From IMG/VR virus record IMGVR_UViG_3300042350_003801: 64,000 bases of DNA, one strand, 5' to 3'. Under the pieces are notes generated by a model. The model was given only the letters and a program-made list of their open reading frames with translations. It made no database searches and was not told where the DNA came from. Of this stretch, positions 392 to 18,608 are shown piece after piece. How positions within the stretch are numbered: position 1 is the stretch's first letter; each line of letters begins with the position of its first letter. A program made the translations under genes and the position numbers. This stretch comes from a virus. Lineage: Duplodnaviria > Caudoviricetes.

Positions 392-401
392 TTTAAAGTA
401 A

Positions 402-1049: not shown

Positions 1050-1142
1050 AGTTCTAAAAAGTGTTTTGTTTACCTTGTGATTATAAGAGGAGGAGCAGCG
1101 CCATCAATAAATTTGTAGACAGTTGCTCAACTGGCACAAGAG

Positions 1143-1511
1143 TTAATAAGATGGTATTACACATTGTTCAACCAACGGAACAAAAACAAGTTCGTGGCCC
1201 CGTTTCAATAAAAATGGCATAGCCATCAATTCGTAGGTTGCAATGTCAATAATATCGTCATAAAAGGTAAGATCCCAGGCAGCGGATCTAGCCGCACACC
1301 AATCATCATAACCAATAATATACCAATCAGTTTTCCGGTTACATCGTTGGTAAAAGTCTTCATCCTGTTCTTCAGTAAAACTATCAATCTTGGTCCAGAA
1401 GTCCAAAACCATCCTATAATTTGATCCAAGAAATTTTTCTGGACGCAAAAGAACTTCGGAGTTATCACCCAACTGATAAGAAAGGAGACGATGAATTTTA
1501 GAGTAGTTCAT
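1143..1511 (-). CDS. MNYS/LGPNY paralog family protein
   Basis: MNYSKIH, PEKFLGSNY..VLDFW, ATYELMAM..LL..G..L.FVPL; degenerate AARSAAWD relic. Confidence 0.8.
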   Translation of the reverse strand: MNYSKIHRLLSYQLGDNSEVLLRPEKFLGSNYRMVLDFWTKIDSFTEEQDEDFYQRCNRKTDWYIIGYDDWCAARSAAWDLTFYDDIIDIATYELMAMPFLLKRGHELVFVPLVEQCVIPSY

Positions 1512-1621
1512 AATTTATCAAAAAGAGGGACAAAAAATAGTTCATAGCCTTCTTCCAATAAAATGTGCATACTTAGTAGTTCATAGGCTGCGGGTGGCCC
1601 GCGATTCGCTGGAGATAACAT
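1508..1621 (-). pseudogene. C-terminal fragment of a family gene (37 aa)
   Basis: MLSPANRGPPAAYELLSMHILLEEGYELFFVPLFDKL; its stop overlaps the ATG of 1143..1511. Confidence 0.7.
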
Positions 1622-1684
1622 AACAGGTTTTATGGGTTTGTGGAGTGGATGGTGGACGGTTGGTTAACTGGCACGATGTAAATG

Positions 1685-3040
1685 GGTCCATTAAAAAACT
1701 TCACTAAATAAAGATGCCTGGTTGGGTCGTGCTTTTCAGGTAGGGGATGAATGAATCATCCCCTTAAAACAATAACTTTCATAAATAATAACACGACCCA
1801 ATAATCAGAGCAGATGCACTTAAAAGCATACAAGTTCAGGATTTATCCAACTAAAGACCAAGAAGTTTTGTTAGCGAAAACTTTTGGTTGTTGTAGGTTT
1901 GTTTGGAACAAACTTGTTGAGAACTTCAATAACAACTCCAAGGAAATTATTAACGAAAAGACATTAAAAGACACTCCCGAATTTGAGTTTCTTAAAGAAG
2001 TTTCTGCTTCTACACTTCAACAAAAGAGAAACGACTTTATTGAATTCAAGAAGCAGTTTTTCAATAAGAAAAGAAAGGCCAAATTAGGACGGCCTTCTTT
2101 TAAGAAGAAATCGAATCTTCAGTCTTTTAGACTTCCCAATCAGAAATTCGTTCTAGACCAAGAAAGCGGTCTGGTTAGACTCGAAAAAATTGGTTGGGTT
2201 AAAGTTGTCGTTGACCGCGAAATCCCCGAAGATGCCGATTTTAGGAACATTACCGTTTCTAAAACTCCAACGGGAAAGTATTTTGCCTCTATCTTAGTCA
2301 AACAAGAACTCAATCCAATACCCTCAACCGGCAAGGTAGTAGGTATTGATTTGGGCATTAAAGACTTGTTCATTCTTTCAAATGGTCAAGTCATTAACAA
2401 TCCCAAGTGGTTTCACAAGAACCAAGCGAAACTCAAAAAAGCCCAGAAACATTTAAGTCGCAAGAAAAAGGGAAGTAATCGTTACAACCGGCAACGAATT
2501 AAAGTTGCTAGAATACACGAATACATTACCAACAGTAGAACTTACTTTCTCCATAACGTGTCTACCGCCTTGGTTAGAACTTTTGATTTAATAGTTCTTG
2601 AAGACCTTAATGTTTCTGGAATGCTAAAGAACCGTAAATTAGCGAAGTCCATTAGCGATGCGGCGTGGTCTACTTTTGTGTCTATGCTGGAATACAAGTG
2701 CAATTGGTACGGTAAAGTCTTGGTTAAAATTAATCGATTCTTTCCTTCCAGTAAGACTTGTAGTTCTTGTGAACATAAGGAAGACAAGATGCCTTTAAAA
2801 ATTCGGGAATGGACTTGTCCTTCTTGCGGTTGTCAACACGATAGAGACTTAAATGCCTCTATCAACATTCTTAAAGAAGGTTGGAGAAATCTAACCGACC
2901 AAGAACTTTCATCGGCGGAGTACGCCGATTACTGGCGTGGAGCGGAATTAAGACTAAATGGTGATTCACATCATTTAGCATCTGCTGTGAAGCGTCTAGA
3001 AAACCAATAGAGTTTTACTTTTATTGGTTTTTTTTACTAT
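1685..3040 (+). mobile_element. tnpB-only (IS1341-like) element, copy 1
   Basis: Similarity to the copy at 33401-34757 begins at ggtcca and ends at ttactat; no tnpA. Ends are inferred from the two-copy alignment only. Confidence 0.65.
1814..3010 (+). CDS. tnpB: TnpB RNA-guided endonuclease (IS200/IS605 family)
   Basis: KAYKFRIYP N-terminus, RuvC GIDLG / EDL / DRDLNA, zinc finger CSSC..CPSC. Confidence 0.95.
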   Translation: MHLKAYKFRIYPTKDQEVLLAKTFGCCRFVWNKLVENFNNNSKEIINEKTLKDTPEFEFLKEVSASTLQQKRNDFIEFKKQFFNKKRKAKLGRPSFKKKSNLQSFRLPNQKFVLDQESGLVRLEKIGWVKVVVDREIPEDADFRNITVSKTPTGKYFASILVKQELNPIPSTGKVVGIDLGIKDLFILSNGQVINNPKWFHKNQAKLKKAQKHLSRKKKGSNRYNRQRIKVARIHEYITNSRTYFLHNVSTALVRTFDLIVLEDLNVSGMLKNRKLAKSISDAAWSTFVSMLEYKCNWYGKVLVKINRFFPSSKTCSSCEHKEDKMPLKIREWTCPSCGCQHDRDLNASINILKEGWRNLTDQELSSAEYADYWRGAELRLNGDSHHLASAVKRLENQ

Positions 3041-3095
3041 CATTATCACCGTCAAAATAATTATTAAAATTTTGATGTGATTTAGAGTAGTTCAT
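3021..3095 (-). pseudogene. N-terminal fragment of a family gene cut by the tnpB element
   Basis: [20 protein letters not shown] runs into the element right end; ATGA overlap with 3092..3538. Confidence 0.7.
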
Positions 3096-3538
3096 AAGTC
3101 GTTAAAAAGAGGAACAAACAATAAATCCTTACCATCGTCCAAAAGCGTGTGCATACCAATTAGTTCATAAGTGGCATACCCGGCGGCAGACCCGGCGGCA
3201 TCCCCGGCGGCATCCCTGGCGGCAGCCCAGGCGGCAGACCCGGCGGCATCCCCGGCGGCATCCCTGGCGGCAGCCCAGGCGGCAATCCTGGCGGCAGACC
3301 CGGCGGCATCCCCGGCGGCATCCCTGGCGGCAGCCCAGGCGGCATTCCTGGCGGCAGCGTCTAGGGCATGATAACGGCGGGCAACTTCATTCCATTGGTT
3401 CTCGGTAAGACCGTCCATAAACCACCAGAAGTTAATGACGGTTTCGTAGTTTGGTCCTAGAAAATTCTGTGGATTTGTTAGGGCTTCAGGATTTTGAAGG
3501 CGGTTGGAGAAGTTTTTATGTGCTTTTGAGTAGTTCAT
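3092..3538 (-). CDS. Family protein with 15-unit AA-X-X repeat (copy A)
   Basis: Constant N- and C-terminal frames around [20 protein letters not shown] units. Confidence 0.85.
3176..3355 (-). repeat. 15 x 12-bp tandem array GCCGCC-NGG-NNT
   Basis: Units read directly; higher-order WA-RD-GD-GS block occurs three times. Confidence 0.95.
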
Positions 3539-3542
3539 AATA

Positions 3543-3573
3543 AGAAAAAATCCCTCATCAAAACTGATGAGGG
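3543..3573 (-). terminator. Intrinsic terminator-like hairpin
   Basis: Perfect 9-bp stem CCCTCATCA/TGATGAGGG followed by ATTTTTTCTT on the minus strand. Confidence 0.6.
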
Positions 3574-4253
3574 GTGCGAGAGTTTACATCAAAGATAGTA
3601 AGAATACCATCATTATCACCACAGCAAGAGTCTAGGACAATTGACTTATTATTATATGCAATTGTAACGAGATGATAATGACCACCGCAACGAATCCAAT
3701 CGTGATTAGATTCTTGGTCCCACCATTGAATCCGATTGCTATCGGAGTTCAAAACACCGTAAATGAGTTTATCCCGCATATGACGCGAGACTTCGTTAAC
3801 AGTGTAGATGCCATCATATTGCTTCGGAACATATAGTTTGGAACTAAAATATGCGTGTGAGCAACGGTATTCCAAATCATCTGCACCTTTAAATGCAACT
3901 GCAAACGGAAGTGATGCAAGCCAATCCATTAGTTCATCACTTGCAACATCAGAAGATGCAAAATCATCTAGGGTTCTTTGCAAGGATTCATCAATCTTCA
4001 CCGGATTTCCGCGAAGATAACGTTGCAGTTTCCACTGATGATTAGAGTGAATTAGTGTAACCTTTCCATCATCTTGAAGTTGGCGAATAGCACGGTAAAC
4101 TGCAACAGAATCAGATTCATCACAGCGAGAATCAAACACATCGCCGAGCATAACAAGATGGTAGTCTTGAATGTTATCGGCAATAAAAGAGAGAGCAGCA
4201 TCAAACCGCGAAAATACGGAGTGAACGTCTCCCATCAGAACAAAGTTGGTCAT
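3558..4253 (-). CDS. Calcineurin-like metallophosphoesterase
   Basis: GDVH, GDVFD, SNH, HA and GHYH motifs. Confidence 0.85.
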   Translation of the reverse strand: MTNFVLMGDVHSVFSRFDAALSFIADNIQDYHLVMLGDVFDSRCDESDSVAVYRAIRQLQDDGKVTLIHSNHQWKLQRYLRGNPVKIDESLQRTLDDFASSDVASDELMDWLASLPFAVAFKGADDLEYRCSHAYFSSKLYVPKQYDGIYTVNEVSRHMRDKLIYGVLNSDSNRIQWWDQESNHDWIRCGGHYHLVTIAYNNKSIVLDSCCGDNDGILTIFDVNSRTPHQF

Positions 4254-4318
4254 TGAAGTTTCCTGATTACACCATACTATATCATCAAGACCGACAGCGA
4301 GTTGATGGATTGTGACAG

Positions 4319-4774
4319 TTATTGAATTGTCACAATGTTTGCTTCTTCTTCGGTTGGAATTTGAAGAGATTTATACATTGATTCAATGACATAATCTGGA
4401 ATATGTTTTCCGGGGCGGCAATTGCGTTCTTTAATTAGTTCTAGTGGTGTATTAAAAAACACAATGGTTGGTTCGTGGTTTTGAAACAAATCAATCTTCA
4501 ATTTCCTGGTTTTAACAATAAGATTTGTTTGATCAATAAGGACATTCTTATCTGTAGTTGCGGCAATGCACATCAGACCATAGAAAACTTTGGCAGCCTC
4601 TTTGATCGTATTCTTCCATACATCGTTATATGTTTTATTTTGTAATTTTGCAACTTGCTCAATGTAGGCATCTGTTGAAAGATGAATGTAATTATCATAA
4701 TCGGATGAAAGAGAAAACGTGCTCTTTCCCGAACAAGGGAGTCCGCAAAGAATGATGAGTTTGGAGCTACTCAT
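4319..4774 (-). CDS. P-loop kinase (polynucleotide kinase-like, AAA_33)
   Basis: GLPCSGKST, IDQTN..R, RN..R.G..IP..VI motifs. Confidence 0.8.
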   Translation of the reverse strand: MSSSKLIILCGLPCSGKSTFSLSSDYDNYIHLSTDAYIEQVAKLQNKTYNDVWKNTIKEAAKVFYGLMCIAATTDKNVLIDQTNLIVKTRKLKIDLFQNHEPTIVFFNTPLELIKERNCRPGKHIPDYVIESMYKSLQIPTEEEANIVTIQ

Positions 4775-5127
4775 AGATTTTCTAACAATGGAATGAAGTA
4801 CAGAGAATGACCTTGATCCAATAAAACTTGCATCCCGATAATTTCGTAGCTAATCATTGCACAAGTCATATGGCCACCTAGATAATCTGATAATGTGGCT
4901 TCTCTACCAACAGTGCTACGGAAGGCAGCGAAAACTTTACTGCCATAAAATTCCGGGGAAAAAACTCCCCTCTTCGATAATTCTTCTTTTTGTTCTTGAG
5001 TAAGAGTGTCAAAAAATGTCCAAAAATTGAAAACACTTTTATAATTTGGACCAAAATGTTTTTCCGGGTTCTCAAGAACATCCGGTTGAACCCTAAGGTA
5101 TTCAGCCAGAGCATTAGAGTAAGTCAT
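4771..5127 (-). CDS. MNYS/LGPNY family protein
   Basis: NPEKHFGPNYKSVFNFW...SYEIIGMQVLLDQG..L.FIPL. Confidence 0.8.
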   Translation of the reverse strand: MTYSNALAEYLRVQPDVLENPEKHFGPNYKSVFNFWTFFDTLTQEQKEELSKRGVFSPEFYGSKVFAAFRSTVGREATLSDYLGGHMTCAMISYEIIGMQVLLDQGHSLYFIPLLENL

Positions 5128-5501
5128 AGATTTTCAAACAATGGAAGAGCTTTGATTTTATAGCCGCGTTCAATAATTGAATGCATTGCGATAATTTCGT
5201 GAGAAGCATGAGCCATGATGTGCGATTTTGGGCAATTGTCAAAAACAGTAGAACCAAGGCAACCGACGCACCCATACCAATAATCTTTTATGATATTTCT
5301 TGATTCATCAAACACAGAATAGTTAGCAGGAACTACACTACTGGGGAGTTTTTCTACCTGCCCTTTCGTTAAGTTTTCAAGAAAATTCCAAAAATTCAAG
5401 AGCGTTGCATAATTAGGCCCAAAATATTTTTCCGGGTTATCAAGAGCATCTGAAAGTGCGTGGAATCTACAAAAATTAAGATGATACTTGGAAGGTATCA
5501 T
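5124..5501 (-). CDS. MNYS/LGPNY family protein
   Basis: NPEKYFGPNYATLLNFW...ASHEIIAMH..IERG....LPLFENL. Confidence 0.8.
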   Translation of the reverse strand: MIPSKYHLNFCRFHALSDALDNPEKYFGPNYATLLNFWNFLENLTKGQVEKLPSSVVPANYSVFDESRNIIKDYWYGCVGCLGSTVFDNCPKSHIMAHASHEIIAMHSIIERGYKIKALPLFENL

Positions 5502-5920
5502 AAATTTTCGAAGAGTTTGATGTAAAGAGGTTCTATACCCCTAAGAAGAATTTTATCAATCAGATAGATTTCAAAGGATGTAGTCTGTAAGGTTACATCC
5601 TCGTTTTCTGTAATCCGAGCTATAGTTCCTCCGTGATATACACAAATCTCTTCCAATACCAACCAATAATCAAACCTGCGGATATTGTGCCTCCGTCGTC
5701 TATTTGCTTCTGCTTTTTGAAAGCCCGAAAGGCTATCATAGTAACTCCAAAAATTTAGGAGCAACTTATAATTTGGTCCAAGGGATTCTTCTAGTGGTTT
5801 TCCACCATCAATGAAGACAAGCTCGTTAAGAATCCGGGCGCGCAAGTTCATGTGAATTTTACTAACAAAGGAAGAATAGCACCAAAATCTAGAAGGTCTT
5901 GGTGCCGGTGGACAGTTCAA
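5498..5920 (-). CDS. MNYS/LGPNY family protein (divergent)
   Basis: LEESLGPNYKLLLNFW...TSFEIYLIDKILLRG..PLYIKLFENL. Confidence 0.75.
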   Translation of the reverse strand: MNCPPAPRPSRFWCYSSFVSKIHMNLRARILNELVFIDGGKPLEESLGPNYKLLLNFWSYYDSLSGFQKAEANRRRRHNIRRFDYWLVLEEICVYHGGTIARITENEDVTLQTTSFEIYLIDKILLRGIEPLYIKLFENL

Positions 5921-7404
5921 ACATCGTCCACTTGTTCAGACTCAATTGTTTCGATATCAATTTCACCTTTATCTGCCTCGGCAGTTTCTCTCATTTTAAA
6001 AGCGAAACTCTTGAACTTATAAGGTTCAATATCAATCACTTCCTTACGAAGTACGATACCTTCATCTGGAACCTTATTGACACACATATCACAATCTTTC
6101 TCAAGATAAGTATCACTCATCTTTTGAACAAAGTTTTCGTGCCAATGTTGGTCGGTAGGAATATCAAACAAGTCTTTTGCCTTGCCCCAATAAAGTTCGG
6201 GAACAACATTAAGACCGTACTTTCGGCAAAAATCCTTCACTTGTTGTGTTGAAAACTCAAACACTCTACCAGAAGGGCTAGTGAATGTGATGCGGTAGAT
6301 GTAAGTAGCAAACTCTCCAAGTTTACAACCATAGTCATATTCTTTTTGAATCCAACCACCATCTTTAGTGTATCCTACTGCCTCACAATAGAAAGTAAGA
6401 CCATCGCTCAGGTAATCTTCAAGAGAAAGGGCAATATCCCGCCAAAGGTCATAGGCATAGAAATGATTAGGAGATGGAGCAGCCTTAATAAACTTAATCC
6501 AATCTTGAATATTTTTATATGCAGCTTTTGGATTTTTGATTGCCTGGATAATATCGCTTGCAAAATGGCCAGGATTCTTTACCCAATGAACAGCATTACG
6601 TCCAAGGGTTTCATACCAAGTAAAATAATAGTTGCCATTTTTAACAACCTTACGGGAACTCCAGATAAGTTGATACTCAGTTTCTTTAACTTTTGCCCCA
6701 AGAAGTTTAGCCAGTTTGTCTTTAGTCGTGAGCCTACGGTTACACAAAACTTTACCGGCAATTGCAGAGGTTCCGTGTAGCTTTTTAGAGATATGGATTA
6801 CATCATCGGGTTTGATGTTATATGCATACTTTGCAAGATGCATCGTATCAACGTGGAATGCAAACTGTCCTTCAATCAGTTTAGATTCGCGGGCGAGTTT
6901 CTTTTGACCCTTTGGAGCCTTTGCCCGTGCTAGTTTTTGAAGCGCTTCCAGATTAATATACTTCTCACACAGAAGAACACCATCAATAGTATCAAAATCG
7001 GTGTCGGCGTGTTCCTCGGTGATTACAAAGTTGTGCTGGCGTTCCGATAGCCATTTATTGATAGAGTGTGCTGGGGAAATATAACCACTTGATTTCTCTG
7101 AACGAAGATTAATTGCCCTTACCCGACCTTTAGACGTAAAGAATCCTTTGGCTTCTTTATTCTCATTTAGGGAACTTTCTTGAAAGCTATTAGTGTAGGC
7201 AAGAAAATCCTTATTGATTGAGCACTCCAGCGGAAAGTACACATAAAGGTCATCTTCTTTTGCTTCTAGGCCAGTGATTACATTGTTGCCATCAATCGTG
7301 GTAACCTGCAAACGGTCGGCATTAGAATGTTTACGAAGATTCTTCAGTTTTACAACTTTGGCGAGATAATTGGGATTTGCCTTTTCAGAGATTTTAAGTG
7401 TCAT
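5917..7404 (-). CDS. RNA ligase (Rnl2/DRB0094-like) with N-terminal tRNA-binding-type OB fold
   Basis: N-terminal KH.NADRL; motif I KLHGTS, motif IV EGIVLR, motif V FKFKS. Confidence 0.8.
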   Translation of the reverse strand: MTLKISEKANPNYLAKVVKLKNLRKHSNADRLQVTTIDGNNVITGLEAKEDDLYVYFPLECSINKDFLAYTNSFQESSLNENKEAKGFFTSKGRVRAINLRSEKSSGYISPAHSINKWLSERQHNFVITEEHADTDFDTIDGVLLCEKYINLEALQKLARAKAPKGQKKLARESKLIEGQFAFHVDTMHLAKYAYNIKPDDVIHISKKLHGTSAIAGKVLCNRRLTTKDKLAKLLGAKVKETEYQLIWSSRKVVKNGNYYFTWYETLGRNAVHWVKNPGHFASDIIQAIKNPKAAYKNIQDWIKFIKAAPSPNHFYAYDLWRDIALSLEDYLSDGLTFYCEAVGYTKDGGWIQKEYDYGCKLGEFATYIYRITFTSPSGRVFEFSTQQVKDFCRKYGLNVVPELYWGKAKDLFDIPTDQHWHENFVQKMSDTYLEKDCDMCVNKVPDEGIVLRKEVIDIEPYKFKSFAFKMRETAEADKGEIDIETIESEQVDDV

Positions 7405-7679
7405 TGTTTTGCTCCGTAGGTTTTTTGAAGGTACTCAGAAAGATCTTTTAGTGCATCCAACTGAGATGCGAAATTATTAGATGAAGTTTTAAAATATTTT
7501 ACATATCCAAAGTGATCTTTTAACCACCATTCCCAATTACGAGTGGTGCTCTTATGATCGGAAATCTCGTGACCATATGGAATTGAAAATGAATCTCTAA
7601 TAGTATATGAATATCCTACCGGAAGAAACCTAGAAATTTTATCAATAGTTTCAATACAGGTGTCACCGAGAATTGTCAT
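7401..7679 (-). CDS. Hypothetical protein
   Basis: 92-aa ORF, translationally coupled to neighbours. Confidence 0.6.
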   Translation of the reverse strand: MTILGDTCIETIDKISRFLPVGYSYTIRDSFSIPYGHEISDHKSTTRNWEWWLKDHFGYVKYFKTSSNNFASQLDALKDLSEYLQKTYGAKQ

Positions 7680-8101
7680 TGTTTTGGATAGTTGGTTTCA
7701 ATGTAAATTTTAAGATTGGCCATTGCCTCGGCCATTGAGACAAAAGTTTCCTCAGACAAATAAGTAGCAGGACCGCAAAAAGAATCTGTATGGTCATTAA
7801 ATGCCCAAAACCAGGGTTTTTCTGGATCTAGACTTCTATTCAATTCAAATGAACACCCAAACGGAATAGGAATGTCGGGAAATCCACTGAAGGTTTCAGT
7901 TTTAGGTAATCCTACTAAATCAAGTTTACCCGCAAGTTGCCTTACAAGATTTACCAAATCATAGATATTTCGTTGTGGTTTGTTTACCCATTCTCTGCCC
8001 AAAGAAGTATCATCCAAAACAGCATTTTTATATTGCTCGGCAATATTTCGGAGGTCTTCTGTTGTCTGCCAATTGTGAATGTTTAGCTCAGTCATAATCA
8101 A
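7676..8101 (-). CDS. Hypothetical protein
   Basis: 141-aa ORF with ATGA overlaps. Confidence 0.6.
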   Translation of the reverse strand: MIMTELNIHNWQTTEDLRNIAEQYKNAVLDDTSLGREWVNKPQRNIYDLVNLVRQLAGKLDLVGLPKTETFSGFPDIPIPFGCSFELNRSLDPEKPWFWAFNDHTDSFCGPATYLSEETFVSMAEAMANLKIYIETNYPKQ

Positions 8102-8487
8102 GAAAGAAGATTTTTGATTTCGAGAATCAACCAGACCTTAGGTGCAGTGATGTTAAGAATAAGACTTTCCGCTGATGGGTAAAACTTATCACAGAAGGTG
8201 AAAATGATGCCCATAGCCATAAACATTAGGCCAGGAATTTCTGAACCAGACAAATCGTGATTTGGATTATTTACTGACCATCTCAAAAGTCGTTTAAAAC
8301 AAAAAATCAAGGCGATTATAAATGCGCCAGAGATAACCATACCAAGAAGATTACTCCAGAAACCGTACCAAACATATTGCAATGCAATGTCTGGAAGTTC
8401 CTTCATCGAGAAATCTTTCGTTGCATTAACAGCAACTAGCATCTGCTTAAGAATCTCGGCAAGTTGAGCCTGAAGTTGTTGGTTCAT
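8098..8487 (-). CDS. Hypothetical membrane protein
   Basis: Two hydrophobic stretches; follows a dyad-hairpin promoter. Confidence 0.6.
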   Translation of the reverse strand: MNQQLQAQLAEILKQMLVAVNATKDFSMKELPDIALQYVWYGFWSNLLGMVISGAFIIALIFCFKRLLRWSVNNPNHDLSGSEIPGLMFMAMGIIFTFCDKFYPSAESLILNITAPKVWLILEIKNLLS

Positions 8488-8558
8488 TGGTTGTTATGAT
8501 GTTGTCTATAGTAGACTAGGGCATCCAGAAGACCAGATGCCCCCAGGTGTGCCAGTTC

Positions 8559-9089
8559 TCAGAGTGGCGTGGTTGAGATTCTATATCCATTAAACTTTGC
8601 CTTGGCTGTCTTACACTTTGTATTAACACCAGTAACAACAACCATAACTGGAGGATTTTGTCCAGTATAAAGAAGAACTTCACCAGTTGTCACTTTGCCT
8701 TCTTCACTAGCGAAGTGTTCGGTGCGGCCGTTAACGTTAACAGAGAAAGTGTAAGGAACAACTTCCGTAAAATTGTCTTTAGGAAGAGTGTGAAGTGCTC
8801 CTGAACCTTTTTCTTCTACCACCCAATCTCCTGCACTATTTGTGGCAAGATAGGTCGCATAGCCAGTGGTGCCGTCTTCCTTGTTGAAGGAATAAAGTTG
8901 AGTTGAATTGGTCATAGTTTCGGGGTCTCCTGTGTAGTGAATGATGTTGCTTTTTGCGAATTCAACTGTCTTATTATTATGCAGATATGCTGCATTAACA
9001 TAATAAGCGCCTTTGTAAGTATAAGTTACTCGCGCCGGCCTTGTGCCAGTTTTGGAGATAATAATATCCCCTTCTTTAAATTCAGCCAT
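8559..9089 (-). CDS. Hypothetical phage protein
   Basis: 176-aa ORF after a dyad promoter. Confidence 0.65.
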   Translation of the reverse strand: MAEFKEGDIIISKTGTRPARVTYTYKGAYYVNAAYLHNNKTVEFAKSNIIHYTGDPETMTNSTQLYSFNKEDGTTGYATYLATNSAGDWVVEEKGSGALHTLPKDNFTEVVPYTFSVNVNGRTEHFASEEGKVTTGEVLLYTGQNPPVMVVVTGVNTKCKTAKAKFNGYRISTTPL

Positions 9090-9165
9090 TCATAGTTTGT
9101 TGGTGAAGGACTCTTTTAGTATTGCACGATTTCTGGTGCTCAGATAAACCCAGTGTGCCAGTTTG

Positions 9166-9882
9166 TCAGGTGTCACTTGAAAGATTAAAAATTAATGGAG
9201 TTGTGGTAGTAATTACCTCTCCGCGTTTGGGGAAATGAGCATCTTTTTCAGCAACATATGCGAGTTCTTCTTTATAAATGGTGAACAATAGTAGTTCACC
9301 ATTAAACTTTTCAGTATAAATGTATTCGGGAACGTTAAAATGTTCCGAAATCATTTTCAACATCGTTCTGATGAGTTTTGGACGGCCTTTAGTTCTAGGG
9401 AGCATATCTAAAGAAGGAATGTGCAATTCAATCTTGTCTTCCGTGAACACTGCCAAGCTATAAGGAGTTTTATAATGTTTCCCTCCGCTTGGAAAAGTAT
9501 AAATTTTTACATTAGGGTGAATGCTCAAAATGGCATCATTATTTTCAGTGATTTTAACAATGAATTTACGGTCTTTGCTATTTGGTTGATGGTCGTCTGA
9601 ATCAAATGGTTCTCGGTTTTTAATCGCTTCCATCATCAGAGGAAACATCTCCTCATTGCTAAGGTCAAACTTTAAACTTTTTGGTTTAATGTAATCTTGA
9701 TAAGCATCTTCGAGTTCCTTTGCCAACTCAAACTTCGCTACACCTTCATTTGTGAGAAGTTGCATAGTATCCGTAAAAAACTCATATTCATACCAGTTGT
9801 AGCCAGGCAGTTCACCAAGCCTGACATATTGATTACCTTTGTACCCAATGTTAATAAACGAACCGTGACCTTGAATGTCCAT
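9166..9882 (-). CDS. Hypothetical protein
   Basis: 238-aa ORF whose stop lies inside the dyad at 9155-9176. Confidence 0.65.
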   Translation of the reverse strand: MDIQGHGSFINIGYKGNQYVRLGELPGYNWYEYEFFTDTMQLLTNEGVAKFELAKELEDAYQDYIKPKSLKFDLSNEEMFPLMMEAIKNREPFDSDDHQPNSKDRKFIVKITENNDAILSIHPNVKIYTFPSGGKHYKTPYSLAVFTEDKIELHIPSLDMLPRTKGRPKLIRTMLKMISEHFNVPEYIYTEKFNGELLLFTIYKEELAYVAEKDAHFPKRGEVITTTTPLIFNLSSDT

Positions 9883-9917
9883 TGAAAATTGGTGGTGAAC
9901 TTCAGTAGAATACGGGA

Positions 9918-10304
9918 CTAATTCAAAAAAGCATCCATAGGTGTGCCAGTTTCAGAAGTGTCCAATCCGTCAAACATTAAAAGAAACGTAAGTTCACCGG
10001 CTTCATCTAAAATTTCTTGGGCTGCAATAATTTCAAAAGTTGCAAACAGTGATGCACCCCAAAGGTGTATTGACGGCCTAACGGATTCTGAAATTACTTT
10101 ATTGGTAGACCTAATAGTGAGTTTATCAACTATTTTCCTTTTTGTATACCGCATTTTGTCATTACGAGACCGAACGGCACTAATCTGTTCCACACTAAGA
10201 TTTTCCAAAAATAGCCAAAAGTTCAGGACCGTTTGCCAATTCGGTCCTAATTCCTCAACACTGTACCGCTTTTCAAACACAATTTGTGTTTTAGACTTTT
10301 TCAT
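9918..10304 (-). CDS. MNYS/LGPNY family protein (divergent)
   Basis: ELGPNWQTVLNFW...ATFEIIAAQEILDEAGELTFL.MF. Confidence 0.75.
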   Translation of the reverse strand: MKKSKTQIVFEKRYSVEELGPNWQTVLNFWLFLENLSVEQISAVRSRNDKMRYTKRKIVDKLTIRSTNKVISESVRPSIHLWGASLFATFEIIAAQEILDEAGELTFLLMFDGLDTSETGTPMDAFLN

Positions 10305-10894
10305 TAGTATTTAAGCAATTTTGCGGTTTGGAGCATTTCTTCCAGTTTATGTTGCCGCTGTAGAAGGTGAAAGAAGAACCTCAAAGTATTAAAGGCATCA
10401 TCCTCAGCTCGGTGTGGATTGCCAATAAAAGACAACTTATGTTTACCCATTGAAGAACGCAACCCACCAGAAAGTGCCCGACCATTTGCAGCCTCAATAA
10501 AGAGGAAAAAATGCTTCACGTCTATAAATCGTCTACCAAAATATGGAAAGTGGATGCCATTATTTTTAAACTCATCAAGAAGTTCATTGGAATCACCTAC
10601 TCCCCATTGGACCGCATTGACAAATGGCTTATGGGTGTCAATAAGATTTGATAGCCATTCAGCGGCTTCTTGAAGTTCTACTCCACCGTCAACATCTTCT
10701 TGTGTAATTCCTGTAATTTCGGTTGTTCTGGGGTGAAGCGGCTTTTTGATTTTAATAAGTTTGGAGTCTTTCAGAAAAATATTACCAGGAGAACCAATAG
10801 CAATACCCACTTCACATATTTCATCAGTTTGTATGCCATCGGTGTTCAATTCAAGGTCCAAAGATAGGTAAAAATTCTCACGAATTGGGTTCAT
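10304..10894 (-). CDS. DEDDh 3'-5' exonuclease (DnaQ-like)
   Basis: SLDLE, WG..D, H.AEDDA motifs. Confidence 0.8.
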   Translation of the reverse strand: MNPIRENFYLSLDLELNTDGIQTDEICEVGIAIGSPGNIFLKDSKLIKIKKPLHPRTTEITGITQEDVDGGVELQEAAEWLSNLIDTHKPFVNAVQWGVGDSNELLDEFKNNGIHFPYFGRRFIDVKHFFLFIEAANGRALSGGLRSSMGKHKLSFIGNPHRAEDDAFNTLRFFFHLLQRQHKLEEMLQTAKLLKY

Positions 10895-11252
10895 TATTAA
10901 TGGTAAATAGTGGAATATATTTGAGGGTTTCTCCCCGTTTAAGAAGAAGATGCATTGTAATCAATTCAAAGACTGGCAGAGGATACGGCAGTCTACCTCT
11001 AATTTCCTCTGATGTAATCTCTAAAACCGTTTCCCTTAGAAGCTGATTATACAGACTATTAAAATCGGCAACTCTTGCAACGCTATTTTTAGCATCAATG
11101 AATCTCAATTCATTATTATAATAAAGAGCATAAAAGTTCATTACCGACCGGTAATTTGGGCCAAGATACTTCTCGGGATTTTCAGTAAAGTCTTTAGGAA
11201 AAGTGGTAGATATAAAAGATTTCAATTTGAAGTTACTAAAGGAGTAGTTCAT
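10878..11252 (-). CDS. MNYS/LGPNY family protein
   Basis: NPEKYLGPNYRSVMNF...FELITMHLLLKRG..L.YIPLF. Confidence 0.8.
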   Translation of the reverse strand: MNYSFSNFKLKSFISTTFPKDFTENPEKYLGPNYRSVMNFYALYYNNELRFIDAKNSVARVADFNSLYNQLLRETVLEITSEEIRGRLPYPLPVFELITMHLLLKRGETLKYIPLFTINNEPNS

Positions 11253-11662
11253 AAGTCGTTAAAAAGAGGAACAAACAATAAATCCTTACCATCGTCCAAA
11301 AGCGTGTGCATACCAATTAGTTCACAAGTGGCAGACCCGGCGGCGGCAACGACACGCCGATCGGAGGCGGCATCCCCGGCGGCATACCCGGCGGCATACC
11401 AGGCGGCATCCCTGGCGGCATCCCTGGCGGCATTCCTGGCGGCATACCCGGCGGCATACCTGGCGGCATCGTCTAGGGCATGATAACGGCGGGCAACTTC
11501 ATCCCATTGGTTCTCGGTAAGACCATCCATAAACCACCAGAAGTTAAGGACGGTTTCGTAGTTTGGTCCTAGAAAATTCTGTGGATTTGTTAGGGCTTCG
11601 GGATTTTGAAGTTCGTTGGAGAAGTTTTGATGTGCTTTTGAGTAGTTCATATTCAGAGCCAA
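11249..11662 (-). CDS. Family protein with AA-X-X repeat (copy B)
   Basis: Frames nearly identical in DNA to copy A; likely start is the MNYS Met at 11650. Confidence 0.85.
11333..11467 (-). repeat. GCCGCC-NGG-NNT array (9 conforming units, one TCCGAT unit and a short non-repeat insert)
   Basis: Read directly. Confidence 0.9.
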
Positions 11663-12162
11663 TTCGGTTTGCGTTGAGGAGATTTAACGTAGTTATCGTG
11701 AATCCAAGGCTTTGTTGCAAGATACATTTTATATGCAGTGAATGTATCAATTGTTTTATCAAACTTCAACTCATCTGGCATTGCACGTTCAAATGGTGTA
11801 AATTTATCGAGATTGCCGTTGGGAAATATTTCAAGTGCCCGAAGAAGAGTATCATAACAAGCATGTTTCTTATTGTATCTACGCTCAAATTCTTCGCAGA
11901 GCATAAACCCATGATAAATTAGCCAATGGGCATTATGAATAGAGCGCGATACCCAGAGAGTGCAAGGATGTTTAAGATGTGGGTTCTTTTTGGTTGAATA
12001 TGAAGTGCCGTCCTTTTTAGGGAGTGCGCCATAATTATGAAACCAAGGCGATGCAATATATGCGAGCATCTGACAACACTCAACTGGCATCTTGTTAATA
12101 TGAAGATCTGGGAGCACAATGGCGCTCTGTTCGGGGCAAGAAGATGTTGCAAAGATGTTCAT
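11653..12162 (-). CDS. Pyrimidine-dimer DNA glycosylase-like protein (DenV family)
   Basis: MNIF....CP..SA..L.D.H..KM..E..QML and HPC..W motifs. Confidence 0.75.
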   Translation of the reverse strand: MNIFATSSCPEQSAIVLPDLHINKMPVECCQMLAYIASPWFHNYGALPKKDGTSYSTKKNPHLKHPCTLWVSRSIHNAHWLIYHGFMLCEEFERRYNKKHACYDTLLRALEIFPNGNLDKFTPFERAMPDELKFDKTIDTFTAYKMYLATKPWIHDNYVKSPQRKPNWL

Positions 12163-12227
12163 AGGATTTGCTTCAACGGTCTTAACCTAGCACTCTTAAT
12201 GGTGCTCCCAGCTTTCGGTGGACAGTT

Positions 12228-12611
12228 TTAAGACTGGCATTCGTTGAAAATTTTAGGGAGATAAAAAAGAGACTCTCCTTCATCTAAAATTCGGTGCATA
12301 CAAATAAGTTCAACCGTTGCCCAACCATACCATTCGCCACTATTCAGAGATATTTGAGTTGCATACCAGGCTTGGGCTTGATATGGTGTAAGAAGTGTAG
12401 CTTCCTTCACAATAAAACTATTAAATCCATAAGGTTTTGTTGCAGAATTTTCAATATAATTAATTTTAGTGATTTCCGGGAGAGATTCAAGATACAACCA
12501 GTAATTTAGAACCGTTTCATAATTTGGTCCCAGGTACTGTTCTGGATAATCGTTAATTTCCTCGGTTAAATAATTTTCCCGCAGCGTTTGGTGAATTTTA
12601 GAGTAGTTCAT
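12228..12611 (-). CDS. MNYS/LGPNY family protein
   Basis: [16 protein letters not shown]...ATVELICMH.ILDEG; C-terminus ends in the dyad. Confidence 0.8.
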   Translation of the reverse strand: MNYSKIHQTLRENYLTEEINDYPEQYLGPNYETVLNYWLYLESLPEITKINYIENSATKPYGFNSFIVKEATLLTPYQAQAWYATQISLNSGEWYGWATVELICMHRILDEGESLFYLPKIFNECQS

Positions 12612-13009
12612 AATTTATCAAAAAGAGGAACGTATACAAGACTATGCATCTGTTCAAGTGTAAGATGCATTGAAATGAGTTCATCCGTTGCCCATTCTAC
12701 TGCATAAACTTGATCAATGTGCCTACCTTCCCCTACACAAACTCGCTGTGCTGCACCCCAAATAACAGTGCTTTCTACGGCCATTTGAACCTTGAGAGAA
12801 TTACTCACAACTAATCCATTGTGCTTAAAATTTTCCCCAAGTAAAGAATATCTTTCCCCAACATTTTCCCATTGGGAATCATTAAGACCTTCAAGAAACC
12901 ACCAGAAGTTAAGAATTTCTTTATAGTTTGGACCCATATATTTTTCCGGTTCGATGAGTCGGTCAACTACATCTCCAGCAAATCGTTGGTGAATTTTAGA
13001 GTAGGTCAT
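12608..13009 (-). CDS. MNYS/LGPNY family protein
   Basis: PEKYMGPNYKEILNFWW...ATDELISMH..L....LVYVPLFDKL. Confidence 0.8.
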   Translation of the reverse strand: MTYSKIHQRFAGDVVDRLIEPEKYMGPNYKEILNFWWFLEGLNDSQWENVGERYSLLGENFKHNGLVVSNSLKVQMAVESTVIWGAAQRVCVGEGRHIDQVYAVEWATDELISMHLTLEQMHSLVYVPLFDKL

Positions 13010-13447
13010 AATTTGTCAAAAAGAGGGAGAAAAGTTAGTCTGTGTCCATCGTCAAGAAGTATATCCATTACTACAAGTTCCAATGTTGCATAACCTAAGA
13101 CAGATGAATTATCATATTTCGTTTTTTCTGGTTCCGGGCCGAAATACCTGGCACATTTCCAGACTTCAAGTTGTCGGTGAACCCGCTGTTCTGCATAATC
13201 CCCTAAATAATAAGACCAACTCGGTTCTCGTATGGACCTAATGAATTCTCTATCAAGTCTATCAACAAAATACCAGAAATCAAACACAGTCTTATAATTT
13301 GGACCTAATGAATTCTCTATCAAGTCTATCAACAAAATACCAGAAATCAAACACAGTCTTATAATTTGGTCCGAAGTGCTTTACAACATCATCAAGAGCA
13401 TCGGGGTATTTTTCAAGATAATATCTAAGGGCAGTAGGATGGTTCAT
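13006..13447 (-). pseudogene. Family gene frameshifted by a 67-bp tandem duplication
   Basis: ATG at 13447 reads MNHPTALRYYLEKYPDALDDVVKHFGPNYKTVFDFW...RSKL*; the second repeat copy leads to ATLELVVM...FLPLFDKL in another frame. Confidence 0.8.
13233..13369. repeat. Perfect 67-bp tandem duplication
   Basis: Copies start at 13234 and 13301; bounded by GGACC, GGACC, GGTCC. Confidence 0.95.
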
Positions 13448-13522
13448 AAAAAGGTGGTTTAACAAAACGATACTAACAGACGGCGGGCAGTTTGGGAGAT
13501 CAAGTGGCCAGTCTTAAAACTG

Positions 13523-15016
13523 TCACCTACGATCTTGCTCAGGTTTTACTAATGGAAAGGCTATTACATCACGAATTGACGGATTATCAGTAAGGAGCAT
13601 TACCAAACGATCAATACCAATACCAAGACCGCCACAAGGAGGCATCCCAACCTCTAAAGCCTGAATAAAATCCTCATCAATAGTTTGTGCTTCGGGGTCT
13701 CCCAATCTGTGTCGTTCTTGTTGAATCTCCAAACGGTTTAACTGTTCAACTGGATCAATAAGTTCGCTAAAAGCATTCGCAGTTTCTCTTCCAACAATAA
13801 ATAACTCAAATCTTTCAACGAATCCTGGCTTACTACGATGTGAGCGAGCTAAGGGAGAAACTTCAACCGGATAATCAATCACAAAGGTTGGTTGAATTAA
13901 AGTTTCTTCTACTCTTTGTTCAAATGTAGATACCATCAGTCGTCCAAGAGAATCAGCATTACTTGGAACATCTAATCCCTTTGAGCACATTGCAATGACC
14001 GCATCTTCCCTAGTTTCAAAACTTGTAAAATCAAGTCCGGTTATTTCATTAACCAATTCAGTCATAGAGACCCTCCGCCAAGGTGGAGTTAAATTGATTG
14101 GTTGCCCCTGATAAATAATCTCTGTTTCCCCAGATGCAAAAACTATCATTTCCTCAGTGAGATTCATCATATCATAATAATCTGAATATGCCTTATAAAT
14201 TTCAACTGAAGTAAACTCTGGATTATGGCGGGTACTGATTCCCTCATTGCGGAAAATTCGGCCAAGTTCATAAACTTTTTCAAAGCCCCCGACCACCATT
14301 CGCTTAAGATGTAACTCTGTTGCGATTCTCAGCGTAAGAGGAATATCAAGGGCATTATGATGCGTCTCAAAAGGGAGAGCATCTGCTCCACCAACAGTGG
14401 GATTTAAAACAGGAGTTTCGATCTCTAAAAATCCCTTATCATCCAGCCAGCGGCGAATGCTGCTGACAATATTCGCTCTACGGCGAAATGTTTCCCGACT
14501 GCGCGAAGAAGTGATTAAATCTAAATAACGGCGGCGATAACGGGTCTCAACGTTCGCAAGACCGTGCCACTTATCCGGCAAAGGCTGTAATGACTTACTG
14601 AGCATCTGCCAGTCTTTTAGTTTTACAGAAAGTTCACCACGATTAGTGCGTTTAATAGAACCGCTCACACCAATCCAGTCACCGATATCAACTAAGGTTG
14701 TAATCTGATTAAAGCAATCTGTGCCATTATCCCGTAAAAATGCCATATCGACATAGACTTGTATCGTTCCACCTTCATCGGCTAGAGTTAGGAAAGATAG
14801 TTTCCCCATAATTCTTCGGGCAATAACTCTGCCAGCAACTGTAACCTCCTGCTCACACTCTTCACCGTTGATTAAATTTGCATGAATTATATGCAATTCA
14901 GATGCACTATGACTAACAGTGAAATTAATTGCATATGGTGTTTTGCCAATACTCTCAAGAGCGCGAGCTTTTTCCAACCGAGTTTCTCTTAAGTCTGATA
15001 AGTTTTTAGAAGTCAT
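13523..15016 (-). CDS. lysS: Lysyl-tRNA synthetase, class II, full length
   Basis: OB anticodon domain (GRV...R.MGK..F), YRRRYLDL, motif 2 [14 protein letters not shown], motif 3 GMPP.GG.GIGIDRL. Confidence 0.95.
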
Positions 15017-15052
15017 TTTAGTTTCGTGTTTTGAATAGTAATTTAAAAAATG

Positions 15053-16276
15053 TCACTTACGATCTTGCATAATCGGGATTTCTCCGTTTTCATAAACGCT
15101 TTCAACGGTAGAATGAATTGTATCTGAAACTGCCTGAAGATTCTTATTGTAAACGGGAATGATTACCTTCCCCTCCGGTTTCAAATAACTTTCATAGTCT
15201 CCAACCTCAAGTGTTCCTTCTTCAATAGCCTTTGAATCTTCAGTAGAGATACGCAAGGTTCTTCCGATGTTTTGGACCAACTTAATAAGATTGAGTTGTC
15301 GCATCAAAAGAACAGCATCCAAAGATTTAACGTTGATTCCTTCTCCAAGAATAGAGTAGTTAAGAATCACATACTTACGCTCAGTGGAACTTCCAAGTTC
15401 ATCTAGAACTTCAAAGAACTTATCGCGTTCAATCTTTTGACCATTATGAAATGCCCCGTGATGTGCCGTAATATGAAGAAGGTCATAACCAAGTTCTTCT
15501 AGTTTTACTGCAAAGTTGGTTTCACTTAACATTTCCATCATCTTTTTTGTTGACTTAACGCATACAAGCAGTTTAGACAAGTCATATTCTTGGATAATAT
15601 TCAAAATATCATCCGCATCGTGTTGAGGTTGCCTTTCATCAATCCATTCAAGAGGATGTGAAATAACTCTCGGCTTAAGAATGTAACCCCCTATAATTAA
15701 CTCAGAAGCAGTTGCTTTTGCAATGATACTACCATAAACAGAATCATTCATTCCAGCCTTCTTGATTGTTGAACTAAATCTTGGAGTTGCGGTAAAATGA
15801 TAACAACGTTTAGTGGTCTCGCTGACATTCTTTACATACTCGTGAAACCCTGCAGATGTTGAGTTGTGCGACTCATCAAACATAAAGGTATCTACCTTAA
15901 TGCCCGATGCATAAATCTTCTTTAAGGAATGATAGGTTGCAAAGATTAGTTTATGGTGGGTCTTATGAATCTCAGTCCACTCTTTAATCGTTTTTGCATT
16001 GGTGGTATGATAATGCCTTACCTTGCCGTTTTTTGTGTGAACGTGTAGAAACTTGGCATTGTCAATATGCTTACCATAATCAAACGATAGTTGGGAAGCA
16101 AGAAGAATCCTTGGTGCAACAACAACTACAGTTTGCGGTTCATCTTTTTCAAACTCTCGTTTAGTATCAAAAATCTGAACATTAGTTTTCCCGGCACCAG
16201 TTGCCATTACAATGATGCCACGGTCTGTTTCAGAAAGCACAACAAGTGCTTGCTCTTGATGAGGACGGAGTTGCAT
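15053..16276 (-). CDS. Superfamily 2 helicase (ResIII-like)
   Basis: LRPHQ, TGAGKT, DESHN, TATP, EGINV, QNIGR motifs. Confidence 0.85.
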   Translation of the reverse strand: MQLRPHQEQALVVLSETDRGIIVMATGAGKTNVQIFDTKREFEKDEPQTVVVVAPRILLASQLSFDYGKHIDNAKFLHVHTKNGKVRHYHTTNAKTIKEWTEIHKTHHKLIFATYHSLKKIYASGIKVDTFMFDESHNSTSAGFHEYVKNVSETTKRCYHFTATPRFSSTIKKAGMNDSVYGSIIAKATASELIIGGYILKPRVISHPLEWIDERQPQHDADDILNIIQEYDLSKLLVCVKSTKKMMEMLSETNFAVKLEELGYDLLHITAHHGAFHNGQKIERDKFFEVLDELGSSTERKYVILNYSILGEGINVKSLDAVLLMRQLNLIKLVQNIGRTLRISTEDSKAIEEGTLEVGDYESYLKPEGKVIIPVYNKNLQAVSDTIHSTVESVYENGEIPIMQDRK

Positions 16277-16677
16277 TAAAAAGAAAGCATAGGAATAAAA
16301 ATCAATTCTTCGCCTTTATCAAGAATAGTTTGTAGGGCAATAAGTTCAAAAGTGACTGGGGCAGGAATGCTTGGAAACTTTCCTATAATATTTCTAACGA
16401 GGCTTCTAGATGCACTTGCGGCAGTAGCTCGTCTGTCCCAATCTAAAATTTCTTCAACATGATCAACGATCTCACAATATCTATTATTATATTGCATTTG
16501 TTTTAAACTATACTTACCTTCAAGTTCTAATAGTTGTTCTTTTGTCAACGTTTCAAGATACCACCAAAAGTTAAGGACTGCTTCATAGTTTGGTCCTAGA
16601 TAATTTTCAGGATTATCATATACTTCGTGAGTGCCATTGCGCTCAGCCAGATCTTGATGGGCTTTAGAGTAGTTCAT
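16276..16677 (-). CDS. MNYS/LGPNY family protein
   Basis: NPENYLGPNYEAVLNFWW...VTFELIALQTILDKG..L.FIPM. Confidence 0.8.
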   Translation of the reverse strand: MNYSKAHQDLAERNGTHEVYDNPENYLGPNYEAVLNFWWYLETLTKEQLLELEGKYSLKQMQYNNRYCEIVDHVEEILDWDRRATAASASRSLVRNIIGKFPSIPAPVTFELIALQTILDKGEELIFIPMLSF

Positions 16678-17120
16678 AAGTCGTTAAAAAGAGGAACAAA
16701 CAATAAGTCCTTACCGTCATTCAATAGAGTATGCATACCCATTAGTTCATAAGTGGCAGACCTGGCGGCATCCCAGGCGGCATACCTGGCGGCAGACCCG
16801 GCGGCATCCCTGGCGGCATTCCCGGCGGCAGACCAGGCGGCAGACATGGCGGCATCCCTGGCGGCAGCCCAGGCGGCATCCCTGGCGGCATACCCGGCGG
16901 CAGCCCAGGCGGCATCCCTGGCGGCAGCGTCTAGGGCATCATAACGGCGGGCAACTTCATTCCATTGGTTCTCGGTAAGACCATCAATAACCCACCAGAA
17001 GTTAATGACGGTTTCGTAGTTTGGTCCTAGAAAATTCTGTGGATTTGTTAGGGCTTCAGGGTTTTGAAGGCGGTTGGAGAAGTTTTTATGTGCTTTTGAG
17101 TAGTTCATATTCAGATACAA
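16674..17120 (-). CDS. Family protein with 14-unit AA-X-X repeat (copy C)
   Basis: Same frames as copies A and B; likely start is the MNYS Met at 17108. Confidence 0.85.
16758..16925 (-). repeat. 14 x 12-bp array, 13 conforming to GCCGCC-NGG-NNT
   Basis: Read directly; one ATGTCT unit deviates. Confidence 0.95.
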
Positions 17121-17688: not shown

Positions 17689-18507
17689 TTATTCTGGCAC
17701 AGAAAGACGTTCTACTCCACCCATATACGGAATCAATGCGGCAGGCAAGGCAACACTACCATCACTTTGTTGACCATATTCTAATAATGCTGCCATTGTG
17801 CGGCCAACCGCTAGACCGCTACCATTAAGAGTGTGTAACAATTGAACATTCTTATTATCCCTAAAGCGAATAGATGAGCGGTTAGCCTGAAAATCAGTAC
17901 AAGTGCTACAACTAGAAATCTCGCGGTAAGTACCAGCGCCAGCCATCCAGACCTCTAAATCATAAGTGCGAGCAGCAGAAAATCCTAAATCTCCGCCACA
18001 TAGTTCCATACGGCGATAAGGTAATTCTAGAGCCTCTAGTATGCCTTCAGCATCGCAGGTAAGTTGTTCGTGAGCTTCCAACGATTTTTCGGGATGACAG
18101 AACCAATACAGCTCAACTTTATTAAACTGATGTAAACGAATTAACCCTCTTGTATCTCTTCCATAAGAACCAGCCTCGCGGCGGAAGCAGGGTGTATGCG
18201 CCACATATTTTAAGGGTAGGCGATCTATATTAATGATCTCGTCACGATGTAGGGCAGTGATAGGAACCTCGGCCGTGGGAGTAAGCCATAGATCATCATT
18301 AGCACACTTAAAACTTTCATCCGCAAATTTGGGAAGTTGCCCCGAACCAGTCAGACTTGTGCTATTTACTAAAATTGGGGGCATAACCTCTTTATATCCA
18401 TTGCCAGTATGACGATCGAGCATAAAAGAAATCAAAGCCCTTTCTAATTTAGCCCCCTGTCCCAATAAAGTCACAAAACGACTTTGTGCAATACGCACGG
18501 AACGTTC
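17689..18507 (-). CDS. serS: Seryl-tRNA synthetase catalytic domain only (N-terminal arm missing); possibly a pseudogene
   Basis: [57 protein letters not shown]; homology begins abruptly at [11 protein letters not shown]; GTG at 18498. Confidence 0.9.
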
Positions 18508-18608
18508 ACGGTTGCATAGTTTGGTCCTAAAAAGTCTTGTGGATTGGTAAGTGCTTCTGGTTTTTGTAGGAGGTCAGAAAATTTTTGATGGACATTTGAG
18601 TGATTCAT
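18471..18608 (-). pseudogene. N-terminal fragment of a family gene joined out of frame to serS
   Basis: [34 protein letters not shown] then serS DNA from 18507. Confidence 0.8.

Follow-up and report, generated by a model that had tools for sequence, protein, structure and literature searches.

The question raised by the 64,000-nucleotide stretch of viral DNA considered here (IMG/VR record IMGVR_UViG_3300042350_003801, Caudoviricetes; hereafter the window) is what function could be served by a family of small genes that is present in 14 copies, most of them crowded into the first 17 kb. The genes appear to form a lineage-specific multigene family, and the uncultured lake phage that carries them is a relative of the T4-like cyanophages (Kyanoviridae-like). 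Comparisons of sequences and a structural model suggest, with a probability of about 45%, that the family encodes a set of specific binder or inhibitor proteins. This interpretation is the most economical because the predicted scaffold is compact and helical, because the middles of the proteins are paralog-specific yet conserved, because the variable arrays of one subgroup hold residues like those of binding sites, and because there is a weak likeness to chains of toxin-immunity complexes together with a placement among RNA-repair, aminoacyl-tRNA synthetase and nuclease genes.

A preliminary description of the sequence had listed 14 near-complete copies and four fragments, with two shared end motifs around unrelated middles, and had likened the whole to an antibody-like library of binders. 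A hidden Markov model (HMM) built from the 14 claimed copies and run against the six frames of the window returned exactly these 14 full-length loci (E 1e-30 to 1e-49) and the four fragments, with no other match in the window below E 0.8, and all matches are on the minus strand. Thirteen of the copies are intact. In the copy at 13006, a perfect 67-nucleotide tandem duplication (13233-13299 / 13300-13366) shifts the frame and splits the gene, the stretch 13295-13513 being matched as one of the fragments; in the public Logan assemblies, too, there is a break between 13262 and 13340. Both shared motifs are genuine, with the consensus MNYSK...NPExxLGPNYxTVLNFW... for the N-terminal frame and ATxELIxMHxLLDxGxxLxFxPLFxxL for the C-terminal frame. 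One glycine, one asparagine and one glutamate of these frames are invariant in the 14-copy alignment, and the same three are the sole invariant residues in an alignment of 149 sequences. The histidine of the MH motif is not kept in every window copy. Translation of four copies probably starts at internal ATG codons (11650, 17108, 5851 and 57717), and the chaining of genes by ATGA overlaps could be seen at seven junctions involving family members.

Four of the copies, those starting at 3092, 11249, 16674 and 57139, have an alanine-rich core and are referred to as Ala-rich copies A to D; the other ten are referred to as non-Ala. With the 149-sequence alignment, AlphaFold2 modelled Ala-rich copy C as a single compact all-helical domain that takes in the whole protein (predicted local distance difference test score, pLDDT, 90.8; predicted template modelling score, pTM, 0.86), in which helices 61-78, 81-99 and 105-123 make up the repeat core. 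The non-Ala copy at 1143, modelled with a shallow alignment, was also all-helical (pLDDT 77). The earlier idea of a constant scaffold with a variable middle fits both the single compact predicted domain and the conservation of the two frames across the 149 homologues. Each gene would encode a soluble all-helical protein of approximately 120-150 residues, in which an N-terminal part (approximately 58 residues) and a C-terminal part (approximately 28 residues) are predicted to fold into one domain together with the middle, which differs from paralog to paralog and consists of two or three helices; the two ends may act as a cap that presents the middle. The Foldseek search that the preliminary description had proposed gave no match in the PDB for either model, and a structure search of the ESM Atlas was equally negative. 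Clusters of the AFDB gave matches for the copy C model (template modelling score 0.5-0.65, probability 0.99-1.0) to uncharacterised cellular proteins of 130-170 residues; the shallow non-Ala model had no AFDB match.

The non-Ala copies behave as stable genes. Comparison was made with L001, a syntenic 243-kb metagenomic contig that has 13 family matches in 20 kb and whose housekeeping proteins are 89-99% identical to those of the window. Non-Ala orthologues from the two genomes share 82-99% identity, with conserved cores, and the number of nonsynonymous substitutions per site (dN) is 0.044 in cores and frames alike. The ratio to synonymous substitutions (dN/dS), a comparison of frame and core also proposed at the outset, is 0.30 for frames and 0.45 for cores. 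When nine orthologues of copy 1143 are compared, a fraction of 0.44 of the core is invariant, as against 0.50 and 0.43 of the two frames. In a tree calculated from the frames only, the non-Ala paralogs lie on long branches, each paired with its own orthologue. Since conservation among orthologues is as high in the cores as in the frames, there is no sign of ongoing diversification; the non-Ala cores are not hypervariable, and their lack of mutual relatedness is the old divergence of stable genes. For these paralogs, the notion of an antibody-like library that is still diversifying fails. Synonymous divergence (dS) from L001 is a mosaic, being approximately 0 for copy 12228, 0.02 for a glycosylase gene, 0.34 for a helicase gene and 0.50 for copy 4771, which points to frequent recombination between related phages.

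In the four Ala-rich copies, by contrast, the middles are related to one another, all being cores of tandem GCC GCC NGG NNT units that encode Ala-Ala-x1-x2, and it is to these copies, whose arrays vary, that the notion of a diversifying library can still be applied. They form a short-branched star in the frames-only tree. Their flanks show 0-2 synonymous codon differences within a genome, compared with 6-13 per 50 codons between genomes; the copies of one genome are closer to each other than to their positional orthologues, which indicates that either duplication or gene conversion took place recently. The GC content of the cores is 73-79%, as against 41-45% in the flanks. Even between positional orthologues of the window and L001, the arrays differ in the number and content of their units, including the two residues of exposed type (x1 and x2); for Ala-rich copy B, both the residues at the x positions and the number of units have changed. 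Block duplications are visible inside arrays, including those of the window, and among the 25 top metagenomic arrays listed every one was different, many with duplicated blocks.

Variation within the unit is confined to a few bases. In 132 units from 12 open reading frames (ORFs) on five contigs, bases 1-6 and 12 are constant apart from a single change, so that the third positions of the two Ala codons and of x2 show one change in 396, and base 9, the third base of x1, is G in 128 of the 132 units (four changes). Base 7 was A in 38 units, G in 58, T in 34 and C in two; base 10 was T in 68, G in 48, A in 15 and C in one; and base 11 was A in 99, C in 31 and T in two. These three variable bases yield W, G or R at x1 and Y, D, S or N at x2. 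At the protein level, among 902 units, x1 is W, G or R in 87% and x2 is Y, D or S in 84%, and the nine main combinations are all common. A composition of W/G/R and Y/D/S/N is typical of binding sites.

The array is not restricted to this family. Four consecutive GCN GCN NGG NNT units were found in at least 118 IMG/VR contigs with GC contents from 32% to 71%. In 109 arrays, 96% of units carried the modal Ala-Ala hexamer of their array, compared with 31% after shuffling, and 12 different Ala-Ala hexamers were used across the set. The arrays sit in many protein architectures, some of them with DUF7666 plus Imm5_like. PHROGs 8332, 18326 and 3416, all of unknown function, match 41, 29 and 12 of the 149 homologues, but the matches ride on the Ala-Ala-x-x array alone, the non-Ala copies are unmatched, and the same profile positions (approximately 150-225) match arrays in proteins of quite different architecture. 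On two contigs (L053, L078) there are tandem pairs of small proteins that consist of a short N-terminal cap, an array and a C-terminal cap, an arrangement analogous to that of the family without detectable homology; homology of the C-terminal frame with these small capped-array proteins was tried and rejected (hhalign probability 4%). No description of this codon-structured 12-nucleotide array was found in the literature searched.

How such arrays might vary has to be weighed against the pattern of bases. It is quite improbable that a directed mutator, such as a diversity-generating retroelement (DGR) or another site-specific process, copies a (GCCGCCAGGAAT)n template and randomises only its adenines, even though several observations fit. 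The variable bases 7, 10 and 11 are exactly the A positions of GCCGCCAGGAAT, a unit of which the window has two instances; replacing an A in an AGG or AAT codon never gives a stop; third codon positions are nearly invariant while the flanks carry synonymous changes; and in DGR systems variation likewise falls at positions that may be adenine in an AAY or AGG codon design. The window, however, holds no ORF of at least 150 residues with a YxDD motif and no stand-alone GCCGCC array outside the four Ala-rich genes. Retention of A is uneven (29%, 11% and 75% at bases 7, 10 and 11), and C is nearly absent at bases 7 and 10 (CGG in two units, AGG in 35) yet accounts for most of the changes at base 11, a spectrum that does not look like a uniform change of A to N. 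At least 118 other viral contigs carry arrays of the same signature, and in five records tested, three of them at least 90% complete, nothing matched RVT_1. Moreover, the non-A bases 8 and 9 have rare changes (11 of 264), but far more of them than the third positions of Ala and x2, which argues for selection on the protein. In the favoured explanation, slippage, conversion or unequal recombination turns the arrays over while selection promotes diversity at x1 and x2, and this accounts only partly for the invariance of synonymous sites across lineages despite drifting flanks.

A broader interpretation can be put forward, although it is rather unlikely. The Ala-Ala-x1-x2 array would be a widespread, undescribed hypervariable recognition module of phages, a minimal helical repeat in which x1 and x2 are diversified while the repeat DNA is kept identical through a site-directed process or extreme diversifying selection, and which is placed here on capped paralogous scaffolds to serve as a fast-evolving repertoire of binders against host or rival factors. 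Near-identical repeat DNA with two variable residues per unit is likewise found in the repeat-variable diresidues of transcription activator-like (TAL) effectors and in variable lymphocyte receptors, but the array unit is only four residues (12 nucleotides) long. That the Ala-rich arrays embody a code for nucleic acids is pure speculation.

Possible parallels with immunity proteins of polymorphic toxins come from two directions. In a search of the PDB by a method other than Foldseek, the top match was 8ows_A (Z 6.8, root-mean-square deviation 3.4 Å, 108 of 122 residues) and the second was 9t38_B (Z 4.9), although for helical bundles a Z below approximately 13 may arise by chance, according to the warning of the tool. 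The first is a chain of the PT1-PIM1 polymorphic toxin/immunity complex of Escherichia marmotae and may be either partner; the second is a chain from the Serratia Rhs2-CT / RhsI2 / EF-Tu complex, and may not be RhsI2. RhsI2 has been described as predominantly helical (bioRxiv 10.1101/2025.10.28.685041). Sequence identity to the two chains is only 4-13%, and neither is found by Foldseek. The other parallel is with Imm5 (PF14423) and Imm5_like (PF21805), predicted immunity proteins of polymorphic toxins that are common in phages with DUF7666. These are mostly helical, as is the family, and many carry the Ala-Ala-x-x tandem repeat; a protein of contig L056 matches Imm5_like at E 1e-7 across its array. 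A search by language-model features placed Ala-rich copy C near viral Imm5_like clusters (scores 0.83-0.86). Immunity genes of this kind have been reported in tandem "polyimmunity" loci (Zhang et al. 2012, PMC3482391). Among the 14 window copies, four have the helical Ala-Ala-x-x repeat, as do 86 of the 224 homologues that are 100-170 residues long; in the others it is vestigial or absent. Nevertheless, the N- and C-terminal frames are unrelated to the Imm5 families, an array is missing from 10 of the 14 copies, there is no visible toxin partner, and in a set of 149 homologues no family member reaches the Imm5 or Imm5_like HMM at E<=0.01.

The family itself is widespread in metagenomic sequence. 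A profile search of 5.8 billion proteins, in a set clustered at 90%, recovered 247 homologues, all annotated as "hypothetical", and an exhaustive search of metagenome representatives gave 394 clusters at 50% identity (279 with E<=1e-10), mostly of 115-140 residues. The earlier statement that the family could not be recognised agrees with the absence of matches in Pfam (none at E<=1 for ten window copies, nor at E<=0.01 for 149 homologues), among NCBIfam and PADLOC defence-protein HMMs, and in a sequence profile search of the PDB. No relative was found in prokaryotes, represented by one genome from each of 185,579 species, or in 50,697 GenBank phage records searched by tblastn, and megablast against GenBank phages was likewise negative. 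On other T4-like contigs, the family occurs as at least nine tandem genes for proteins of 129-130 residues in L141, where it also adjoins PTH2, and as a single member between a gp45-like gene and the gp44 clamp loader gene in L139 and L140. The nearest cultured relatives are the Synechococcus phages B23, B3 and S-SRM01 (Kyanoviridae, 241-245 kb), whose helicase is 41-43% identical and which share the order of tail-fibre, helicase, NMNAT and NAMPT genes with the window; however, the B23 genome contains no family member. DNA of the window occurs in many lake-water metagenomes, and no RNA run was found to contain the region. In four lake-water runs from 2020 to 2024 (X1, X3, X6, X7), compared over positions 1-20000 of the window, there were no differences in unique stretches, on contigs up to 7.7 kb, while assemblies break at the arrays and the differences seen there are cross-mapping of paralogs; the strain is stable outside its repeat arrays.

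The family probably grew by tandem duplication and was trimmed by deletion, by the frame-shifting 67-nucleotide duplication and by insertion of a TnpB element. The middles of the older paralogs are fixed and under purifying selection, so each of these proteins probably has its own constant partner. In the young subgroup the array evolves fast through gain and loss of units and blocks, the units staying alike save for the three bases that set x1 and x2. The proteins may act as stoichiometric binders or inhibitors, in the manner of immunity or anti-defence proteins, and their targets could be factors of the host or of rival phages, among which nucleases or toxins directed at nucleic acids or translation are the most plausible; as pointers to a target, the gene neighbourhood and the weak fold match to toxin/immunity complexes are only suggestive. 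A number of observations weigh against the binder reading. The fold matches fall in the range in which chance may produce them, and comparison of the family with 14 Imm5-like/DUF7666 phage proteins by hhalign gave a probability of only 0.1%. The neighbours scanned, several small unannotated ones among them, contain no recognisable toxin domain. The predicted isoelectric point of the family proteins is mildly acidic (median 5.2), unlike that of classic DNA mimics, and a DNA-mimic role was rejected on this ground. Finally, the polar residues that never vary (N of GPNY, E of ATYEL) may belong to an active site instead of making a structural contact.

It is improbable that the proteins are enzymes or nucleic-acid-binding factors, in which the invariant G-P-N and E would form a site and the middle would tune specificity or stability. 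The invariance of G, N and E in 149 sequences and the location of the genes among RNA-repair, nuclease and aminoacyl-tRNA synthetase genes are compatible with such a role, but these small, all-helical proteins match no enzyme family or fold, the histidine of the MH motif is not retained in all copies, and it would be unusual for one catalytic activity to be expanded 14-fold. By analogy with the expanded adaptor families of large eukaryotic viruses, the members might instead be substrate adaptors for a putative Ubl-JAB-E2-E1 conjugation cassette of the phage, located outside the window, with the frames docking to E2 or E1 and the middle picking the targets. The combination of constant frames and a variable core would suit an adaptor, yet this is very improbable, given that the family occurs in contexts without a Ubl cassette (next to the gp45-like and gp44 genes in L139 and L140, and beside PTH2 in L141) and has no fold similarity to known E3 or adaptor modules. 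The suggestion that the copies are largely functionless, being selfish duplications or decaying debris in a hyperplastic region, can draw on the four fragments, the frameshifted copy, the copy interrupted by TnpB and the mosaic divergence from L001 (dS 0 to 0.5). It is extremely unlikely in view of the 13 intact frames, dN/dS values of 0.3-0.45, orthologues kept at 73-99% identity in many contigs, 394 clusters of conserved length and the translational coupling of the genes to functional neighbours.

The genes interleaved with the family were correctly characterised as RNA-repair, aminoacyl-tRNA synthetase, nuclease and helicase genes, the Pfam domains being those of a calcineurin-like phosphoesterase (Metallophos), an AAA_33 kinase, an RNA ligase, an RNase_T exonuclease, a pyrimidine-dimer glycosylase (Pyr_excise), a class II LysRS, a DEAD/ResIII helicase and a SerRS catalytic core. 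Elsewhere the window has a T4-like gene content that includes gp32 and genes for the tail and baseplate. There was no TATAAATA motif near the family genes, a scan for promoters and terminators gave no enrichment over shuffled sequence, and the regions upstream of the four Ala-rich copies have no clear motif in common; expression of the family probably goes along with that of the non-late genes around it. At 3552-3573 on the minus strand, a 9-bp GC-rich hairpin with a T-run after it overlaps the phosphoesterase stop codon and lies 14 nucleotides upstream of Ala-rich copy A; it could be a terminator or a regulatory palindrome. Coordinates of the family members and of the associated TnpB element are given in the Table.

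Table. Family genes, gene fragments and the associated TnpB element in the 64-kb window
Feature	Position	Strand	Evidence
Family copy, 122 aa, non-Ala core	1143..1511	-	HMM E 2e-39; 9 orthologues 73-99% identical; AlphaFold2 pLDDT 77
C-terminal fragment of family gene, profile positions 95-122, beyond TnpB	1511..1663	-	HMM E 1e-8
TnpB (IS605 OrfB / Cas12f-like) element	1814..3010	+	Pfam OrfB_IS605, Cas12f1-like_TNB, HTH_OrfB_IS605
N-terminal fragment of family gene, ~15 profile positions, cut by TnpB	3024..3101	-	HMM E 0.014, weak
Ala-rich copy A, 148 aa, 15 units at 3176-3355	3092..3538	-	HMM, codons; GC 0.79 core vs 0.42 flanks
Family copy, 118 aa, non-Ala	4771..5127	-	HMM E 9e-41; L001 orthologue 82% identity
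Family copy, 125 aa, non-Ala	5124..5501	-	HMM E 3e-40; L001 orthologue 91% identity
Family copy, 117 aa, divergent; ORF reaches 5920 from TTG	5498..5851	-	HMM E 6e-31; long tree branch
Family copy, 128 aa, divergent	9918..10304	-	HMM E 3e-30
Family copy, 124 aa, divergent	10878..11252	-	HMM E 3e-31
Ala-rich copy B, 133 aa, 9 units at 11360-11467 then degenerate tail	11249..11650	-	HMM, codons
Family copy, 127 aa, non-Ala	12228..12611	-	HMM E 6e-42; L001 orthologue 99% identity
Family copy, 133 aa, non-Ala	12608..13009	-	HMM E 4e-42
Family copy split into two frames by 67-nt tandem duplication	13006..13513	-	HMM, translation, repeat comparison
Family copy, 133 aa, non-Ala	16276..16677	-	HMM E 2e-40; L001 orthologue 97% identity
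Ala-rich copy C, 144 aa, 14 units at 16758-16925	16674..17108	-	HMM, codons; AlphaFold2 pLDDT 90.8, pTM 0.86
N-terminal fragment, profile positions 1-34, abuts N-terminally truncated SerRS	18474..18632	-	HMM E 3e-11
Ala-rich copy D, ~70-aa C-terminal extension, 5 units at 57463-57522	57139..57717	-	HMM E 2e-45; codons

Two of the rearrangements can be followed from the fragments. The TnpB gene separates N- and C-terminal remnants of one family gene, and since these remnants flank it, the element sits inside a former family gene. The same order is kept in L001, where a family copy is followed by an N-terminal fragment (19066-19242) and then by TnpB (19259 onward). Two further TnpB genes are present in the window at 22836-24014 and 33529-34725. 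The SerRS of the window (17689-18632 region) is a catalytic core only, of 269 residues with a GTG start, whereas that of L001 has the full 425 residues with the N-terminal domain; this suggests that one deletion removed the N-terminal domain of SerRS and the rest of the abutting family gene, of which a 34-residue remnant is left. The LysRS gene (13523-15016 in the window) is absent from positions 8590-9040 of L001, which is otherwise syntenic and in which only fragments of family genes follow the helicase gene.

Large phages have numerous small genes without a known function, and it is the expanded families among them that offer the best candidates for host-interaction factors. The family described here is large (394 clusters, and up to 13-18 matches per approximately 20 kb), is without annotation and has a confident structural model. 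The co-existence of old paralogs with fixed middles and a young subgroup with a fast-evolving core provides a natural experiment on the diversification of a binder-like scaffold. A 12-nucleotide array with invariant synonymous sites and variable residue-defining sites recurs in at least 118 unrelated viral contigs. If this array is a general variable recognition surface, it would be a new class among the few natural hypervariable protein systems, and could serve as a very small engineerable scaffold.

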